From NCBI GenBank assembly GCA_965232115.1, contig OZ246958.1, forward strand, positions 4,098,841 to 4,162,840: a stretch of DNA of 64,000 bases, written 5' to 3'. Positions 2,943-60,476 of this stretch are shown piece by piece (position 1 is the first letter of the stretch; each line of letters starts with the position of its first letter). The notes beneath the pieces are model-generated. The model did not search any database, was not told the origin of the DNA, and saw nothing but the letters and a program-made list of their open reading frames with translations. The DNA comes from Candidatus Poribacteria bacterium. Lineage in GTDB: Bacteria; Poribacteria; WGA-4E; WGA-3G. Made by a program: the position numbers and the translations under genes.

Positions 2943-3806
2943 TCACCGCTTGAGTGTGTTGACAATTTCTTCGTTGCCCTCACGCAATGCCATGTCGAGA
3001 GGCATCTCTCCTCCATAGGGTTGAAACACAACTCTCTTGAATTCACGTAGGGGCCAGACCAGTGATGTGACCTCATCTGTCCATTCGGTGAACTGTTTGG
3101 GACGACACATTCGACTGACTGTTTTCAGCGATGGGTCGGCACCGTGGTCCAACAATAGCCGAACCATCCGCAGATTGCCCAACCGGGCGGCGAAATGTAG
3201 CGGTGTTTCCTTACCGTATTCAACGAAATGCTCGTTATCCATGATGGGTTCTTCATCAAGTCCGCTCAGTGCCTGTGCATTGACATCCGCGCCTGATTTA
3301 ATCAGGATATAGGCTTGTGCAAGATGCGTATCGTCATCGTGCCGGGATTGCACATGGAGTACGGTTTCGCCGTTGTAGGGCCATGCGAAATTCGGATCCA
3401 ATCCGTTTTCCACCATGAGTAGAAAGGAATCGAAGTTGGTGACACCAACACCGTGAAACCCAAGATAGGAGGGTTGATTGACCTCGGTTCCCTGACTGAT
3501 GAGATACCGGTTAATCTCGTAATCGGGGCTTGGCCAATGCGTGCCAAGGTCACTGTTGTTTACATCGGCACCTGCCTCTATAAGTGCCTTGACTTTATCG
3601 AGATCTTTGATCTTAATGCTTGCAGTAAAGAGCGGTGATGTTCGATTCACTTTTACGTTTACGAGTTCCGGTGCTTCAGCAAGCATTTGTCGAACTGTCT
3701 CTGCATCTGCTGTTTCAAATTCTGCACGCCAGCGTTCAATGTATTTTGGGTTCATTTCATCTCCGTGTGATGATAGACCTATTTGATCTGTTAGCATTTT
3801 TATCAA
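2943..3806 (-). CDS. ankyrin-repeat protein
   Basis: Canonical ANK repeat TPLHFAARLGNLRMVRLLLDHGADP plus several more degenerate copies (GADVN...). Confidence 0.8.
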   Translation of the reverse strand: MIKMLTDQIGLSSHGDEMNPKYIERWRAEFETADAETVRQMLAEAPELVNVKVNRTSPLFTASIKIKDLDKVKALIEAGADVNNSDLGTHWPSPDYEINRYLISQGTEVNQPSYLGFHGVGVTNFDSFLLMVENGLDPNFAWPYNGETVLHVQSRHDDDTHLAQAYILIKSGADVNAQALSGLDEEPIMDNEHFVEYGKETPLHFAARLGNLRMVRLLLDHGADPSLKTVSRMCRPKQFTEWTDEVTSLVWPLREFKRVVFQPYGGEMPLDMALREGNEEIVNTLKR

Positions 3807-3897
3807 TCACCCGCAATCACCTTCCAAGTAGTTTAACACATACGTGGAGAAATTCATCAGAAATTCGTTTATTGAGCGGTTAGACACCATTTTTAAC

Positions 3898-3926
3898 TTG
3901 ACATCAGTTAATAAAAATAGTATAAT
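3898..3926 (+). promoter_or_regulatory. consensus sigma70-type promoter (TTGACA-17nt-TATAAT) firing into a non-coding island
   Basis: TTGACA at 3898-3903, a 17-nt spacer, TATAAT at 3921-3926. There is no credible ORF for ~950 nt downstream. Confidence 0.5.
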
Positions 3927-4176
3927 ATATCATAAGACTTTCCAAAGAGGGAAATATTGTATCAATCTACAAAACGCCGGCACGAAAACCGACACAACAT
4001 TTTCAGCGGACTACACAAGTTCCTTACCAACCGCTAACGGTTTCCAATGGTTTCCAACAGCCACAAAAAAATGTTACACTTTTCGCCAAATTATTTTTTT
4101 TACAACAGAAAATCGGGAACGAAACATCAACGAACCCTTATGGCCACTATGTTCCCTAACGTTACACACTATACGC

Positions 4177-4202
4177 AAAATGTTACACCAGTGTAACATT
4201 TT
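4177..4202. promoter_or_regulatory. perfect 12-bp inverted repeat (AAAATGTTACAC-CA-GTGTAACATTTT), operator-like; extra GTTACAC half-sites at ~4073 and ~4162
   Basis: Read directly: the left arm at 4177-4188 is the reverse complement of the right arm at 4191-4202. The same GTTACAC core recurs twice within 120 nt upstream. Confidence 0.5.
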
Positions 4203-4480
4203 TAAGGGAAATTACTCAAAAATATATCGTTAAGTTAATACTATATTCACGTCTGTTTTCACACAGATGCACACCACTTTCATAGTAACCCCCAAAAATC
4301 CTTAAAAGGAGAAACCCGCCTAAACCCACGCCACCATTGGCGTTACAAAGGTAATTCCGAGAGATGAAAAATTCAGATTCATAGTAACAGTAAAAAAACG
4401 ACCCTTTCATAGACACCCGACAAACCCACGTCACACCTGACTTTATGAGGGTTTTAAAGGCACAATTTTCAAAACGTTAC

Positions 4481-4516
4481 TATGAATACTATGAATACTA
4501 TGAAAACTATGAATCC
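4481..4516. repeat. 4 tandem copies of a 9-nt unit TATGAAWMC
   Basis: tatgaatac tatgaatac tatgaaaac tatgaatcc. The related motif CATAGTAAC / GTTACTATG also occurs at ~4281, ~4381 and ~4476. Confidence 0.7.
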
Positions 4517-4751
4517 CGACACCGTTGATTCGCTGAATGTCCAATTAATTCTAAGGTTTACCATAAATGCCTCTATTATAGTAGATTCCAAAAATAAGTT
4601 TACACTACAAGCGAAAACCCGCCCCTGCTGGCGAGGTTTCCTAACCTCGCCACTGTAAAGTTAATTATGAGTTCCACTATAAGACGCGCAGAATGGTTCC
4701 AATCTATTAAGGAGTGGATCTTACAGAGGATAGAGCGTGCTTCAGGTTAGA

Positions 4752-4811
4752 ATTCGTACGTCGCGCCGAAAGGGATTGTCTATTCGTACGTCGCGCCGAA
4801 AGGGATTGTCT
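4752..4811. repeat. perfect 30-nt tandem duplication (ATTCGTACGTCGCGCCGAAAGGGATTGTCT x2)
   Basis: Two identical adjacent 30-mers at 4752-4781 and 4782-4811. No spacer lies between them, so this is not CRISPR-like. Confidence 0.9.
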
Positions 4812-4863
4812 AAAGGAAAAAGATAGTAAAGAGGCAAGTTAGGAGCTCCGCTATGAGGAAGGT

Positions 4864-5619
4864 TTAGCGAGTTTTGAGGAGTTTCTTGGCTGCCTTAGAC
4901 CAGTGTTGCTTAATCTCTTCAGGCACCCGAAGGCGTTCACCGGTATGGGGCAGGACACGTCCATAGCCGATGTCCAGCATAGGTCGGTGGGTGCCGGTCT
5001 TATTCGGCATGCCGACATGCCACAATCGCATATCACGAAGGATGAGAGAACCTATAGGCATAACCGCTTGTAGCGCGGGTAAGTGCTTACTCCGTTCACC
5101 GAGATACCGAACATCCTCAGGTGGAGAATCCATAATCAGATGCGAGCCGGGCCAGATTTTTGTAGCACCATTCTCCTCTAAGAAATCAACTAACGGAATA
5201 TCAACATAAATACCCGTAACCGGTAGCACACACGGCAATTCAGGAAACAGGTGATTGCCGTCACGATGCGGTGCTTTTTCCACTTGCTTGCCATCTACAT
5301 CCGGCGGTATATTATGAATTCCGCAACGGAATAGTGCGATCTTCTTGCCCATCGCAGCTTCAATCACTTGAAGCGAGAACGGATTGGTGATAAATTGGTG
5401 ATGGAGAAACGGCATCTGGACGACATGCCGCGCTTTCCGTGCCTTTCCCTGTCGAACAATCTCGAAATAGGCGGTCTGTGCCACCTTGACCAGATCAAGT
5501 GACACGGCGTTCTCAAGGATAACAGCACCGACCTCTCGGAGTAACCGAACCGCCAAATCGAGATTCGCAGCACACATTTTTCCGTCTGCTTGCTCTTCAT
5601 CCGTCAGCTGAATCCGCAT
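4864..5619 (-). CDS. phytanoyl-CoA dioxygenase (PhyH) family Fe(II)/2OG oxygenase
   Basis: HRDGNH...H metal-binding pattern and length typical of the PhyH family. Confidence 0.7.
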   Translation of the reverse strand: MRIQLTDEEQADGKMCAANLDLAVRLLREVGAVILENAVSLDLVKVAQTAYFEIVRQGKARKARHVVQMPFLHHQFITNPFSLQVIEAAMGKKIALFRCGIHNIPPDVDGKQVEKAPHRDGNHLFPELPCVLPVTGIYVDIPLVDFLEENGATKIWPGSHLIMDSPPEDVRYLGERSKHLPALQAVMPIGSLILRDMRLWHVGMPNKTGTHRPMLDIGYGRVLPHTGERLRVPEEIKQHWSKAAKKLLKTR

Positions 5620-5675: not shown

Positions 5676-6443
5676 CTACGCCAACTTACCGCGTAGCAGT
5701 GGGTTGTCTTTCATCACTTCGCCATCGCGATTCCGCGTCCCCGATTGCATGTAATGAAGGACCATCGCTCGGCGGTCTCGGGATGAGCGGTTCGGATCCG
5801 TCTGGTGGAGTGTCATGCAGTGATGCACCATCCCACATCCAGCTTTAACTGGCACGGGTATAGCACGATTCACATCAGCATTCACCTCCAACAACGCTGG
5901 CAACTTACCTTTCTCTGACTGCGCGCGTCCGTGTGCCGCTAATCCTTCCAAGTAACTGCCGGGGATAACGTTCATACAACCGTTCTCTTCGTCGGCATCG
6001 TCGAGTGCTATCCAGATGCTCACAAGATTCGGCGGGTCGCATTGCCAATACGCATTGTCCTGATGCCAATAGACTTCACCCCCGTGATAGGCGGGTTTGT
6101 AGAGAGCCTGATCGTGGAATAACTGGATATCGGGACCGATCAAACTCTCGGCGATGTCTAACAACGGTTCGTGGTAGAGCAGTTTCCGATATTCCTCATC
6201 CAAACGCCACATCTCCATGATCTGTAACATTTCTTCGTCACGATCAGCGTCTTCATCGCTTTCCGAGTCCCCAACGACTGCGAGGTTGCGCAACCCCTCA
6301 CCAATCGTGCCGCGCCTCTGCGCAAAGAGTGCGTCGTAATGTTCACGTAGCACGGCAAGGTGTTTGTCATCAATGAGTCGTTTTTCTATGTTGAGATAGC
6401 CTACCTGTCTGAATTGTTCGACCTCTTGTGGTGTAAGTTTCAT
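5676..6443 (-). CDS. phytanoyl-CoA dioxygenase (PhyH) family protein
   Basis: WHQDNAYW motif (HxD facial-triad region), 255 aa. Confidence 0.75.
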   Translation of the reverse strand: MKLTPQEVEQFRQVGYLNIEKRLIDDKHLAVLREHYDALFAQRRGTIGEGLRNLAVVGDSESDEDADRDEEMLQIMEMWRLDEEYRKLLYHEPLLDIAESLIGPDIQLFHDQALYKPAYHGGEVYWHQDNAYWQCDPPNLVSIWIALDDADEENGCMNVIPGSYLEGLAAHGRAQSEKGKLPALLEVNADVNRAIPVPVKAGCGMVHHCMTLHQTDPNRSSRDRRAMVLHYMQSGTRNRDGEVMKDNPLLRGKLA

Positions 6444-19322: not shown

Positions 19323-19821
19323 TAATCACCCTACCGATTTAAATCCTTCCACCAAAAAGGTGCCTCGTGAAAGTGATGAAGAGAACCATCAACATGACCT
19401 CTGAGGTGTGTAGTGGTGAGGATCCGGCGGGTCCCGTCTGCGGAGACACATTATTGATGCCCAAATTTATATTTGTAGGTTCTCATGGTATATCAAGTCT
19501 CAAGTCTTTAACCCCTGTCAAGTGGGTAGGCAGACACATTGCCTTGCAGCAATGCTTGACATGTCTGCCAACTTGATATAAGAATTATACCACAATTTAG
19601 GTTAATTTGTCAACTCTATTTTCAACAACGTTTCATGCCGTCTTACATCCCCAAGCTGAAGCATGGGGCTTTAGACGGGGAAGTGGTAAAACCGACGGAA
19701 AGTTGCCTCATTTTCATTTTTAGTTATAAGTCATTCTACTTTTCTTGAAAAAAATGTGAATTTTTCAGAAAACTGAGGGTTGAATGCTGTTATAGAATTC
19801 TATCAGGAATTCCAAAAAACT

Positions 19822-19851
19822 TTGACATTCAAGGACAAAATGTGCTATAAT
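19822..19851 (+). promoter_or_regulatory. consensus sigma70-type promoter (TTGACA-18nt-TATAAT)
   Basis: TTGACA at 19822-19827 and TATAAT at 19846-19851. It lies ~300 nt upstream of the gene at 20153. Confidence 0.5.
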
Positions 19852-20152
19852 ACTTAACATACATAAATTTCAAAACAGGATTATCAAATGTTTTATCTGC
19901 CGCTTACCACGTTGATACATAAAAACCGCCTTTGCACATCGGTTGGTATTGGTGCTGTGCTGTGCGCTATTTCTATGTACCAGACAGGGGTGGGCTCATG
20001 AGTAGCAGATAAAAGGCTTTTGAAGTTACACAATACAACGCCCATCACTGAACATCATAAAATGGAGATTTCGGTGAGGGTGTTTCTTTTTTAAGACGAC
20101 AACCGAAGGCATTACGTTTGTAAGGAAGAAAAATGCTAAAAGAGGAGGAAAA

Positions 20153-31224: not shown

Positions 31225-31244
31225 GGCGGGGTTGAAACCCCGCC
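31225..31244 (+). terminator. GC-rich hairpin (GGCGGGGTTGAAACCCCGCC) between the two metalloprotease paralogs
   Basis: Perfect 7-9 bp stem read directly. The trailing sequence is not U-rich, so it is either a weak terminator or a REP-like element. A similar hairpin is at 4630-4651. Confidence 0.4.
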
Positions 31245-47197: not shown

Positions 47198-47371
47198 GAG
47201 GTTTCCACGTAACAATTCACCATATTTTTCGGCTTTATGATAACTATTTATGGTAGATTTTAGAATTAATTGGACGCTCTGCCCCGGCGAGGTTCGGAAA
47301 CCTTGAAGAAATCCGCAGAAATACCCTATCAAAGACACCAAGCAAAAACCCTACCGAGAAGGAGAGGATGT

Positions 47372-58593: not shown

Positions 58594-58706
58594 TTTTTTT
58601 CAAGAAAAGTTAAACAAGGTGAACACGCGTACATTTGGTAAATTATATCACATATTAGGGGTCGTGTCAAATTTAGAATTCAGTCTATCCACACACCTGC
58701 TTTACA

Positions 58707-59612: not shown

Positions 59613-60476
59613 TTATTCGTTTTCATTTTCAGAGTTGGCGAGTTGTGCTTGGAGACGTTTTAACTCGGCTTCTATTGCCTGTCGTCGCTCTGATTCTTCT
59701 CTGGCGAGTCTTTCAGCTGCGAGGCGGCGTTCGGATTCGCTTACTGCGCGTTCTTCTGCTGCGAGGCGGCGTTCGGATTCGCTTACTGCGCGTTCTTCTG
59801 CTGCGAGGCGTAGGTAATGTTCTTCAACAGAAGTTGTAATGGGGGTGCCATCGGGGAGATAGGGGCGTAACAACCTGACATGCGTATGCAGTTGATCCTC
59901 CCATCGGAAATAGAGGTTTAGTGCTTGACTAAATAGCCCGCCTTGTACGTCTGGGACGATTTCAAGGATATCCCCCGATGGGCTTCGCCGCCACCCTCGA
60001 AACTCTGGGGGTTTCTTCATTTCAGGTTGATGGATGTAGTACTCTTGCGCCCCCATATCGTCGAGATAGACTTCAAATTTTCCATGCCGATCCCGATAGG
60101 CTGTTGAATCGGAAAGAAATTCAAAAATAGCTGTAGGGACGGCACCTTCTGACCATGTATAAAAACTCCGCCGCTGTGGATACTTCTCGACACCAAAAAC
60201 AACAAAAACATCCGGAGCAACGAATTTTCTGATGTCGCCTTCACGGTAGTAGATAAAACTGTCAACACCGACATAAATGTGTGGATGGGTTTGAAAGTAT
60301 CGCGAGATCTGGTCAGAAAAAACACGAATTTGTTCAGCGTGGTATCCGGTTGCGGACATAGGCTCGTCGTCCTCATAAGGGTAGCCTTCTATAAAAACGG
60401 TCGGTTTTCCGCTCGCTTTTGGAAAGACCGGCATATACTTTCTTTGCTTGAATTCAAAATCGTTTCGCGTATTCAT
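59613..60476 (-). CDS. Uma2-family (DUF820) endonuclease-fold protein with a repeat-containing coiled-coil tail
   Basis: Core (APDVFVVFGV, FEFLSDSTAY) is homologous to 27856-28527. The C-terminus has 14-aa repeats (AAEERAVSESERRL). Confidence 0.65.
   Translation of the reverse strand: MNTRNDFEFKQRKYMPVFPKASGKPTVFIEGYPYEDDEPMSATGYHAEQIRVFSDQISRYFQTHPHIYVGVDSFIYYREGDIRKFVAPDVFVVFGVEKYPQRRSFYTWSEGAVPTAIFEFLSDSTAYRDRHGKFEVYLDDMGAQEYYIHQPEMKKPPEFRGWRRSPSGDILEIVPDVQGGLFSQALNLYFRWEDQLHTHVRLLRPYLPDGTPITTSVEEHYLRLAAEERAVSESERRLAAEERAVSESERRLAAERLAREESERRQAIEAELKRLQAQLANSENENE
59719..59810. repeat. perfect 42-bp tandem repeat (2 full copies plus 8 nt) inside the Uma2 gene
   Basis: gcgaggcggcgttcggattcgcttactgcgcgttcttctgct at 59719-59760 is repeated identically at 59761-59802. 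42 is a multiple of 3, so the frame is kept. Confidence 0.9.

Follow-up and report, generated by a model that had tools for sequence, protein, structure and literature searches.

A gene-free gap beside an ankyrin gene of Candidatus Poribacteria is probably a mosaic of small repeat elements

What occupies a gap of about one kilobase between two bacterial genes when it holds no gene and is nevertheless crowded with palindromes, motif copies and tandem repeats? The question is raised by a stretch of 64,000 nucleotides (nt) from a Candidatus Poribacteria bacterium (assembly GCA_965232115.1, contig OZ246958.1, positions 4,098,841 to 4,162,840), referred to here as the window, in which such an island lies between an ankyrin-repeat (Ank) gene and a gene for a PhyH-family dioxygenase. 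The original prediction for this locus, made from the letters alone, was that the island is not spacer DNA and represents either a structured or regulatory RNA locus or a multi-operator control region. Part of this stands, in that the island is non-random and part of it probably transcribed; the operator array and the conserved structured RNA do not. The island is probably a strain-specific mosaic of new repeat families, resembling miniature inverted-repeat transposable elements (MITEs) and repetitive extragenic palindromic (REP) sequences, which is set within a conserved intergenic module at a hotspot for gene cassettes and which possibly includes a small-RNA unit.

That about 1.05 kb lack a credible open reading frame (ORF) is borne out, and the gap is most likely a little longer. 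The Ank gene most likely starts at the ATG at 3755 and not at the TTG at 3806, as the 270-amino-acid product is found exactly on record and the 287-amino-acid product is not; with this start the gap extends from 3756 to 4863 (1108 nt). The 129-amino-acid ORF within the island has no Pfam match, and the public gene call for the same genome in another assembly (99.94% identity) leaves the gap between PhyH and Ank empty. In exact-protein look-ups the TTG-start Ank product and the products of both PhyH genes were not on record. The GC content of the island is 0.37, against 0.48 for the window, with a strong excess of A+C on its + strand. All of the features listed in the original prediction are present at, or a few bases from, the positions given for them, and they exceed chance.

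Comparison with related loci suggests that the island is made of two layers, with an older intergenic module of about 200 nt and the 3' flank of the PhyH gene on the outside, and a block of about 807 nt belonging to this genome alone on the inside. The parts are as follows.

3756 to 3872, - strand: proximal half of the older, conserved module between the genes, upstream of Ank and with TGTGTTAAACT as candidate extended -10 element; 93% identical to L037 3608-3725.
3873 to 4679, no strand assigned: lineage-specific insertion or replacement of about 807 nt; absent from L037, L003 and L010.
4680 to 4775, - strand: distal half of the conserved intergenic module; 87-90% identical to L037 3496-3588 and L003 10678-10775.
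4752 to 4811, no strand assigned: perfect 30-nt tandem duplication (2.0 copies, 100% identical, tandem-repeat span 4752-4812), at a recombination junction.
4801 to 4863, - strand: conserved 3' flank of the PhyH gene; 89% identical to L003 6757-6818.

Among relatives that share the ankyrin gene and its flanks, L037 is the closest; its Ank protein fragment is 95% identical (93% for the DNA). Here 19 nt stand in place of the 807 nt or so of the window (about 3873-4679), and both the upstream sequence 3872-3756 and the homologue of 4772-4680 are kept. The flanks are likewise contiguous in L003 and L010, where the counterparts of window 4772-4680 and 3872-3790 are only 19-20 nt apart. Because the outer parts are contiguous in all three of these loci, the inner sequence is an insertion, with boundaries that are uncertain by about 5-15 nt. 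The proximal half of the module is conserved also in L003 and L010 and partly in L035, and the TGTGTTAAACT that it carries upstream of Ank may be an extended -10 promoter. The inserted block has a folding energy well below that of shuffled sequence (z = -6.3 on the + strand and -3.3 on the - strand), which is accounted for by its inverted repeats.

The best defined of the components within the insertion is an element called F2, which takes in the palindrome and half-sites that had been read as operators.

4067 to 4207, + strand: F2 element, about 140 nt; 18 homologous copies in metagenome contigs.
4067 to 4080, + strand: 5' box of F2, AAAAATGTTACACT, followed by a T-run.
About 4133 to 4153, + strand: degenerate central hairpin within F2.
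4158 to 4167, + strand: internal half-site of F2, of the AATGTTACAC type.
4177 to 4202, + strand: 3' palindrome of F2, perfect 12+12, AAAATGTTACAC-CA-GTGTAACATTTT, followed by T5 at 4203-4207.
4177 to 4207, + strand: intrinsic-terminator-like hairpin and U-run at the 3' end of F2, with conserved CATTTT and a consensus hairpin in RNAalifold.

The perfect 12-bp inverted repeat that had been described at 4177-4202 is thus found as AAAATGTTACAC-CA-GTGTAACATTTT, and the two further GTTACAC half-sites correspond to AATGTTACAC-type sites at 4070-4079 and 4158-4167. When up to one mismatch to AATGTTACAC is allowed, four of the five matches in the window fall within 135 nt. Copies of F2 were retrieved by a metagenome scan with a pattern for the palindrome core, which returned more than 120 stretches. 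Eighteen of these share about 140-155 nt of homology with window 4062-4220, at 70-75% identity (nhmmer E values of 1e-27 to 1e-43), and represent about 14 distinct loci, all of them intergenic and flanked by unrelated genes. Some of the contigs (MKWU and LXNJ assemblies) derive from metagenomes of the marine sponges Aplysina, Petrosia and Sarcotragus, and two, L130 and L111, share genes with Poribacteria loci, so that at least these two are Poribacteria contigs. In all 18 related copies the GTTACAC palindrome is the 3' end of the element of about 140 nt, and it is never free-standing. The palindrome and its half-sites therefore appear, from these alignments, to be the two ends and an internal degenerate copy of a single element.

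The alignment of the copies (A4) resolves F2 into a series of conserved blocks, namely the 5' box (A)AAATGTTACACTTT, a run of 6-9 T, AAAACG, a hairpin of the form GAACCC-TTAC-NNNN-ACT-GGGTTC, CCGAT, TGTACAC and finally the palindrome with TTTT. The conservation is patchy, with the blocks split by a stretch that varies in both length and sequence, and the copies differ by 1-nt insertions and deletions (indels) and by the length of the T-run, leaving no conserved reading frame. The 5' box and the last arm are inverted repeats of each other and form a 14-nt terminal inverted repeat that is 100% complementary in the window and has 94% of its cells paired across 17 copies, where the 3' arm is fixed by the search pattern and the 5' box is not. 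All 17 aligned copies have CATTTT behind the stem, with two more T than the search pattern fixes, but only 11 of them have a complete A-run on the mirror side; this asymmetry fits the U-tract of a terminator and not a symmetric protein site. The stem itself has 10-12 bp with a short loop and at least four T behind it in all aligned copies. It is A+T-rich with three G-C pairs, and the terminator scan did not list it. On a reading of the ORF table, about 10 of the 13 copies with a scorable upstream gene sit 19-280 nt behind a co-oriented gene.

The remaining matches to the search pattern include a separate repeat. A palindrome with no gap, AATGTTACACGTGTAACATT (with flanks such as TATATTATCTGA...GACCTCTAAAGA), makes up 78 of 125 matches and is a multi-copy repeat in unrelated, non-sponge metagenomes of about 40% GC (e.g. 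Ga0209636, SMTZ1 and JGI2171J19970 contigs, among L039-L158). These matches were rejected as relatives of F2, since outside the palindrome they have nothing in common with the island and belong to another element.

A second family, F1, lies at the right-hand side of the insertion.

4573 to 4685, - strand: F1 element, a long imperfect palindrome of about 115 nt; full copies in L016, L014, L028 and L021.
4629 to 4652: central hairpin of F1, with a short second stem and TTTTCGCTT behind it on the - strand; a terminator-like site is listed here on the - strand.
4538 to 4569, - strand: solo F1-type end (CATTTATGGTAAACCTTAGAATTAATTGGACA), which recurs at window 47246-47276 and in L016, L017, L019 and L026.

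The GC hairpin noted previously at 4630-4651 has the sequence GGCGAGGTT-TCCT-AACCTCGCC, and the likeness that had been pointed out to a hairpin between metalloprotease genes is also real: GGCGGGGTT-GA-AACCCCGCC, at 31225-31244 between two Met-zincin genes, is its only relative in the window. This hairpin seems, by comparison of the copies, to be the core of F1, which has five full and several partial copies, all intergenic, in about 0.5 Mb of sampled Poribacteria DNA. The copy in L021 has GGTGCGG/CCGCACC in place of GGCGAGG/CCTCGCC, which amounts to two compensatory pairs, and the outer ends of F1 co-vary within a copy (TATAGTGGA/TCCACTATA and TATGGTAAA/TTTACCATA). The DNA folds better than shuffled sequence, with z = -4.9 for the window copy, -3.9 for L016 and -4.1 for L021. 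The outer end of F1 falls at the right breakpoint of the insertion (4679-4683). F1-type pieces occur near F2 copies in L051, L138 and L142; a relationship between F2 and F1 was rejected by an alignment test. Elsewhere in the window, a solo F1-type end and half hairpin (GGCGAGGTTCGGAAACCT) lie at 47246-47303 between convergent genes for 5-formyltetrahydrofolate cyclo-ligase and a helix-hairpin-helix protein, and at this site at least the position between convergent genes excludes F1-type ends as ordinary mRNA promoters.

Outside F2 and F1 the insertion contains a local duplication and short repeats.

4277 to 4488, no strand assigned: two tandem units of about 100 nt, Ua (4277-4377) and Ub (4376-4488); alignment of Ua with Ub gives z = 5.7.
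4478 to 4514, no strand assigned: 9-nt tandem repeat, TACTATGAA x 4.1, within the right inverted-repeat arm of Ub.
4039 to 4057, no strand assigned: short tandem repeat to the left of F2, GGTTTCCAAT x 1.9; no homologue found.

The second motif of the original prediction, said to occur in both orientations, was recovered as TTCATAGTAAC, exact at 4279 and 4378 on the + strand and at 4476 on the - strand; with up to one mismatch there are four matches in the window against 0.68 expected, and no shuffle reached four. The CATAGTAAC copies appear to be nothing other than the ends of the tandem duplication of about 100 nt. A perfect 12-nt inverted repeat, ATTCATAGTAAC / GTTACTATGAAT, bounds Ub, whose DNA fold has z = -3.1. 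The two tandem repeats that had been listed were found as 9 nt x 4.1 at 4478-4514 and 30 nt x 2.0 at 4752-4812, and the first of them looks to be a slippage expansion of the right arm of Ub. The idea that Ua and Ub are diverged copies of F1 was rejected in a shuffle test, which was not significant (z = 1.6 and -0.6). No homologue of 3873-4066, 4204-4380 or 4373-4540 was found in all of the DNA retrieved.

Comparison with the relatives indicates that the island lies at a hotspot of gene-cassette exchange between Poribacteria genomes. The PhyH operon is syntenic in every relative, up to the PhyH stop codon and no further. In L013 and L014 a homologue of window 2806-2592 begins within about 25 nt after PhyH, with the ankyrin gene and the whole island absent. 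In L003 and L037 a 3.9-kb block (L003 6922-10706; L037 2-3521) is found between PhyH and the conserved module, exactly at the position of the 30-nt duplication of the window, the unit of which is single-copy in relatives. As the block sits exactly there, the duplication is interpreted as a junction scar at a recombination hotspot. The block is bordered by a short repeat, GACAATCCCT/GCGATTCCCT, and comprises a 522-amino-acid fusion protein with an extracytoplasmic function (ECF) sigma factor together with a 714-amino-acid ORF without Pfam matches. The two neighbours of the gap are given below.

2943 to 3755, - strand: ankyrin-repeat gene, 270 amino acids, left neighbour; Pfam Ank matches and exact product on record.
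4864 to 5619, - strand: PhyH-family dioxygenase gene, right neighbour; Pfam PhyH, 29 Poribacteria orthologues and synteny map.

The orthologues of PhyH are 70-92% identical and come from 29 genomes labelled Candidatus Poribacteria, which places the window in the genome of a Poribacteria sponge symbiont. Orthologues of Ank with 80-90% identity occur in many Poribacteria in unrelated neighbourhoods (L034, L035 and L036), and homology between the genomes is confined to window 3776-2919, that is from about 20 nt before the ATG to about 10-25 nt past the stop codon. By this comparison, made around position 6000 or 3726 of L034, L035, L036 and L037, the ankyrin gene behaves as a movable cassette. 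In L035 it lies beside transposase genes of the insertion sequence (IS) types IS1595, IS3 and IS605. A gene for a 308-amino-acid protein also moves as a cassette close to the exact ORF (L130 4889-5831 compared with L019-L027), again between unrelated neighbourhoods and with homology that stops at similar distances from start and stop codon. A further insertion, of 750-920 nt, is found between rsgA and a GNAT gene (homologues of window 9640/9606) in L007-L011, L013, L014, L016 and L028; the two genes overlap by 4 nt in the window, and the insertion in L014 contains a truncated IS3-like ORF, an F1 copy and a gene for 238 amino acids. An interpretation of the GTTACAC / GTGTAAC boxes as integron attC sites was discarded, as their orientation and consensus, judged by eye against R'/R'', do not fit and the Ank cassette leaves no room for an attC.

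The reading of the island as a mosaic of mobile repeats has a number of points against it. The pattern used to retrieve F2 fixes the palindrome, so that conservation of the palindrome is a matter of ascertainment. F2 has no copy in about 430 kb of other Poribacteria loci, and no autonomous element with matching ends was found. Neither F2 nor F1 on its own has a clean pair of filled and empty sites: F2 lies upstream of the 308-amino-acid gene in L130, but the L019-L027 counterparts of that gene lack it and differ along their whole upstream region. Target-site duplications were seen neither at F2, where the aligned copies were inspected by eye, nor at F1 nor at the ends of the insertion as a whole, and the block of about 807 nt replaces about 18 nt rather than cleanly interrupting a site. 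Moreover, Ua/Ub, 3930-4066 and 4204-4276, which make up about half of the insertion, have no homologue in the DNA searched. An IS1595-type transposase gene in L035 does have a 35-nt match to F2 upstream of it, to the centre of the element and not its ends. In the strict sense F1 and F2 are putative MITEs only, and F2 is no more than a candidate family of small-RNA genes.

On the mosaic reading the island might work as follows. The inner block probably consists of F2, the locally duplicated Ua/Ub with slippage at its end, a solo F1-type end and a complete F1, these being imperfect palindromes with inverted ends. On the + strand, a sigma-70 promoter at 3898 would give a non-coding transcript of about 275 nt through the leader and F2, which would stop at the F2 hairpin and U-run (about 4207). 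On the - strand, the F1 hairpin and its TTTTCGCTT tail would stop read-through from the PhyH operon before it reached the Ank promoter. The elements would thus serve as portable promoter and terminator modules and not as protein-binding operators for their neighbours. The part of this scheme that concerns the + strand starts from one further feature.

3892 to 3975, + strand: promoter module, TTGACA-17-TATAAT (3898-3926) and a leader of about 45 nt; 12 of 12 consensus matches.

The promoter had been identified in the original prediction as pointing into the island, and it is there, on the + strand, with all 12 consensus bases. Four perfect consensus promoters were observed in the window against 0.04 expected from block shuffles, an enrichment of about 100-fold, and one of these, at 58670, is about 50 nt upstream of a gene start. 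Judged by this enrichment, the organism clearly uses the canonical sigma-70 consensus, and the perfect promoter at 3898 is probably real. It has no ORF downstream, and the first terminator-like structure that follows is the palindrome and T-run at 4177-4207. It is likely, from this arrangement, that the promoter drives an RNA of about 275 nt, from about 3933 to about 4207, which ends at the F2 terminator. In L130, positions 4584-4621 are 89% identical to the promoter module over 38 nt, the leader (about 45 nt) can be aligned, and promoter, leader and F2 have the same arrangement as in the window; a gene starts 27 nt after this F2 copy. A second ORF-free gap of about 830 nt, at window 19323-20152, contains two perfect TTGACA-18-TATAAT promoters in opposite directions (19613 on the - strand and 19822 on the + strand), and 19467-19621 within it is 82% identical to L015 1145-1299. 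This gap may hold another non-coding transcript.

These observations raise the possibility, which remains doubtful, that promoter, leader and F2 form a genuine small-RNA gene of about 150-280 nt, acting in trans or of the 3'-untranslated region (UTR) type, with F2 as a paralogous family of small RNAs and the rest of the island incidental. The perfect promoter without an ORF behind it and the order of parts common to L130 both favour such a gene, as do the retention of a U-run beyond the needs of the palindrome and a conservation of F2 that is patchy and not a uniform decay. Same-strand promoters with at least 10 of 12 consensus bases are found within 170 nt upstream in 7 of 16 F2 copies (5 of 14 when three related copies are counted once), in comparison with 1, 2 and 0 of 16 at control positions and 3.7% in random windows (about 4-6% in controls). 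Against a small-RNA gene, the promoter lies anywhere from 16 to 140 nt ahead of the element, and more than half of the copies have no strong promoter and lie behind genes. Under the mosaic reading, too, these upstream promoters, the retained T-run and the place of most copies behind co-oriented genes make transcription likely; F2 would then be read either from a promoter of its own or within a 3' UTR, and would supply the terminator.

The structure of the RNA also weighs against a small-RNA gene, and against the conserved structured RNA that had been predicted. The predicted 275-nt RNA is no more stable than its shuffles (z = -0.9), RNAalifold on the F2 copies returned the terminal hairpin only, and none of the internal helices tested shows covariation beyond controls. 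Covariation in the end-to-end stem and in the central hairpin of F2 did not rise above shuffled or slid controls, and a crude all-against-all scan gave only A-U/G-U noise. Pairing of variable loop positions of the hairpin with the segment upstream of it was considered as a further helix and dropped, the paired fraction (39%) being equal to that of shuffles. The Rfam search that had been proposed gave no match at gathering thresholds over the whole window; within 3600-5000, at E values up to 10, the best sub-threshold hits (E = 0.44-2.1) were to implausible families. No tRNA or tmRNA was detected. Furthermore, the inner sequence of about 807 nt is absent from L037. A type I toxin-antitoxin system or small peptide was likewise rejected, the leader ORFs of the window and L130 being unrelated and several F2 copies, inspected by eye, showing no conserved ORF on either strand.

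It is unlikely that the entire block of about 807 nt is one composite non-autonomous mobile element, in which inverted F1-type ends (left about 3880-3903, right 4654-4682) would enclose F2 and Ua/Ub as cargo and which would have arrived in one piece. The meeting of the right breakpoint (4679-4683) with the outer end of F1 would be expected of such an element; the left end is 81% complementary to the F1 end over 16 nt and resembles, by eye, other F1-type ends such as that at L016 12057, and the two ends pair in the fold of the - strand. Yet the similarity of the left end is short, weak and without statistical support, no target duplication and no second copy are known, and the likeness of Ua/Ub to F1 is not significant, as described above.

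It is very unlikely that the island represents decayed protein genes or the remnant of an insertion-sequence transposase. In favour of such a remnant are the recombination hotspot, at which relatives carry extra genes, and the low GC. The only long ORF, though, is without a Pfam match, and large parts of the island are non-coding repeat families with frame-breaking indels. A blastn comparison of the island with plasmid and phage records gave no similarity, and no translated search of the whole island was made. Scarcely credible, finally, is the multi-operator region, in which one factor would bind the GTTACAC sites and a second CATAGTAAC to regulate Ank, the PhyH operon or the 3898 promoter: it has in its favour the perfect 12-bp arms, four sites clustered within 135 nt and the overlap of one site with a weak promoter-like match on the - strand, but the sites lie 250-300 nt downstream of the 3898 promoter and at a distance of over 300 nt from the start of Ank, every palindrome forms the 3' end of an F2 copy, mostly just behind a co-oriented gene, the T-run behind it is conserved in the asymmetric manner of a terminator, none of these sites is present in the upstream module that the Ank orthologue of L037 retains, and the search for palindrome and CATAGTAAC occurrences that might define a regulon found none beyond chance in the rest of the window or in some 430 kb of related Poribacteria loci.

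The centre of F2 has a connection beyond the Poribacteria. Its hairpin motif, AAACCC-TTAY-NNNN-AYT-GGGTTT (window 4133-4153), has at least 120 matches in IMG/VR viral contigs (L159-L278), for which chance, on a rough estimate, would give a few tens. Amongst the unique viral instances 45 of 82 (about 55%) are outside any ORF of at least 60 amino acids, and many of the others fall within short ORFs of doubtful standing. The A and T next to the hairpin are conserved, and the stem extends no further; the hairpin is sometimes found in tandem and often beside GC-rich terminator-like hairpins. No Rfam family covers the instances, and inspection of the downstream genes showed no family common to them. 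The only occurrences of the motif in 1.3 Mb of non-viral DNA are inside F2 copies and at the L035 site (4466-4502). The F1 hairpin was not found in the viral contigs. A rather improbable extension would make F2 an undescribed mobile small-RNA family of the sponge-symbiont Poribacteria, read from a strong promoter of its own or within a 3' UTR, with a central hairpin that is a functional module shared with phages. If this were true, the hairpin would be a widespread and unannotated element for the binding of protein or RNA, and F2 would be the means by which Poribacteria domesticated or spread it.

In wider terms, where a gap without genes is densely filled with palindromes, tandem repeats and copies of motifs, this can be the mark of stacked small repeat elements and not of regulation. 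The literature search gave no small repeat elements or small RNAs described for Poribacteria, which are an uncultivated phylum of sponge symbionts; two dispersed families are now defined, with coordinates and alignments, and the promoter-F2 unit provides one concrete candidate for a small-RNA unit. Intergenic regions beside eukaryote-like genes such as those for ankyrin repeats turn over fast, and genes move as near-exact ORF cassettes. An unrelated repeat elsewhere in the window, 42 nt x 2.4 with 98% matches at 59712-59810, is inside a long ORF (59613-60476, - strand).

It remains to compare these elements with known systems. QUAD/Sib and the LDR repeats of E. coli are repeated intergenic units that were later recognised as small-RNA or type I toxin loci. 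F2 is similar to these in being a repeated intergenic unit of about 140 nt with a promoter in a good fraction of its copies and a terminator, and differs in having no conserved small ORF on either strand in the several copies examined by eye, its frames being broken by indels and by the variable T-run, and in showing no sign of an antisense partner. The 3' end of F2 is also comparable to Rho-independent terminators, with a stem and at least four T in all aligned copies, although the stem is A+T-rich with only three G-C pairs and the terminator is a prediction; F1 has the corresponding hairpin and TTTTCGCTT on its - strand.

Correia elements (CREE/NEMIS) of Neisseria are MITEs of about 100-155 bp with inverted ends and with promoter- and terminator-active sequences, present in hundreds of copies per genome. 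F1 and F2 are like them in being small, non-coding, bounded by inverted ends and dispersed between genes, often at gene ends. The ends of F1 resemble -35/-10 boxes, and F2 ends in a hairpin with a T-run, in the manner of built-in promoter and terminator sequences. They differ in having no sequence similarity to the Correia elements, and no TA target duplication was seen. The copy number of F2 appears to be low: some 430 kb of other Poribacteria loci contain no copy, where a Neisseria genome has hundreds.

The REP sequences, their mosaic clusters (bacterial interspersed mosaic elements, BIMEs) and the enterobacterial repetitive intergenic consensus (ERIC) sequences, also called intergenic repeat units (IRUs), of enterobacteria are imperfect palindromes that are often clustered as mosaics between genes, with ERIC having a length of about 127 bp. 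F1 differs from REP in lacking the conserved GTAG head, and in belonging to another phylum with other sequences; no RAYT-type transposase was found, none having been sought. In form it is alike, being an imperfect palindrome of about 115 nt, like ERIC, with a GC hairpin that is also present by itself at 31225, in the manner of a solo REP. As in a BIME, several units and half-units are packed together in the island, and as with REP sequences they are found at the 3' ends of operons, where they would be in a position to act as terminators or stabilisers.

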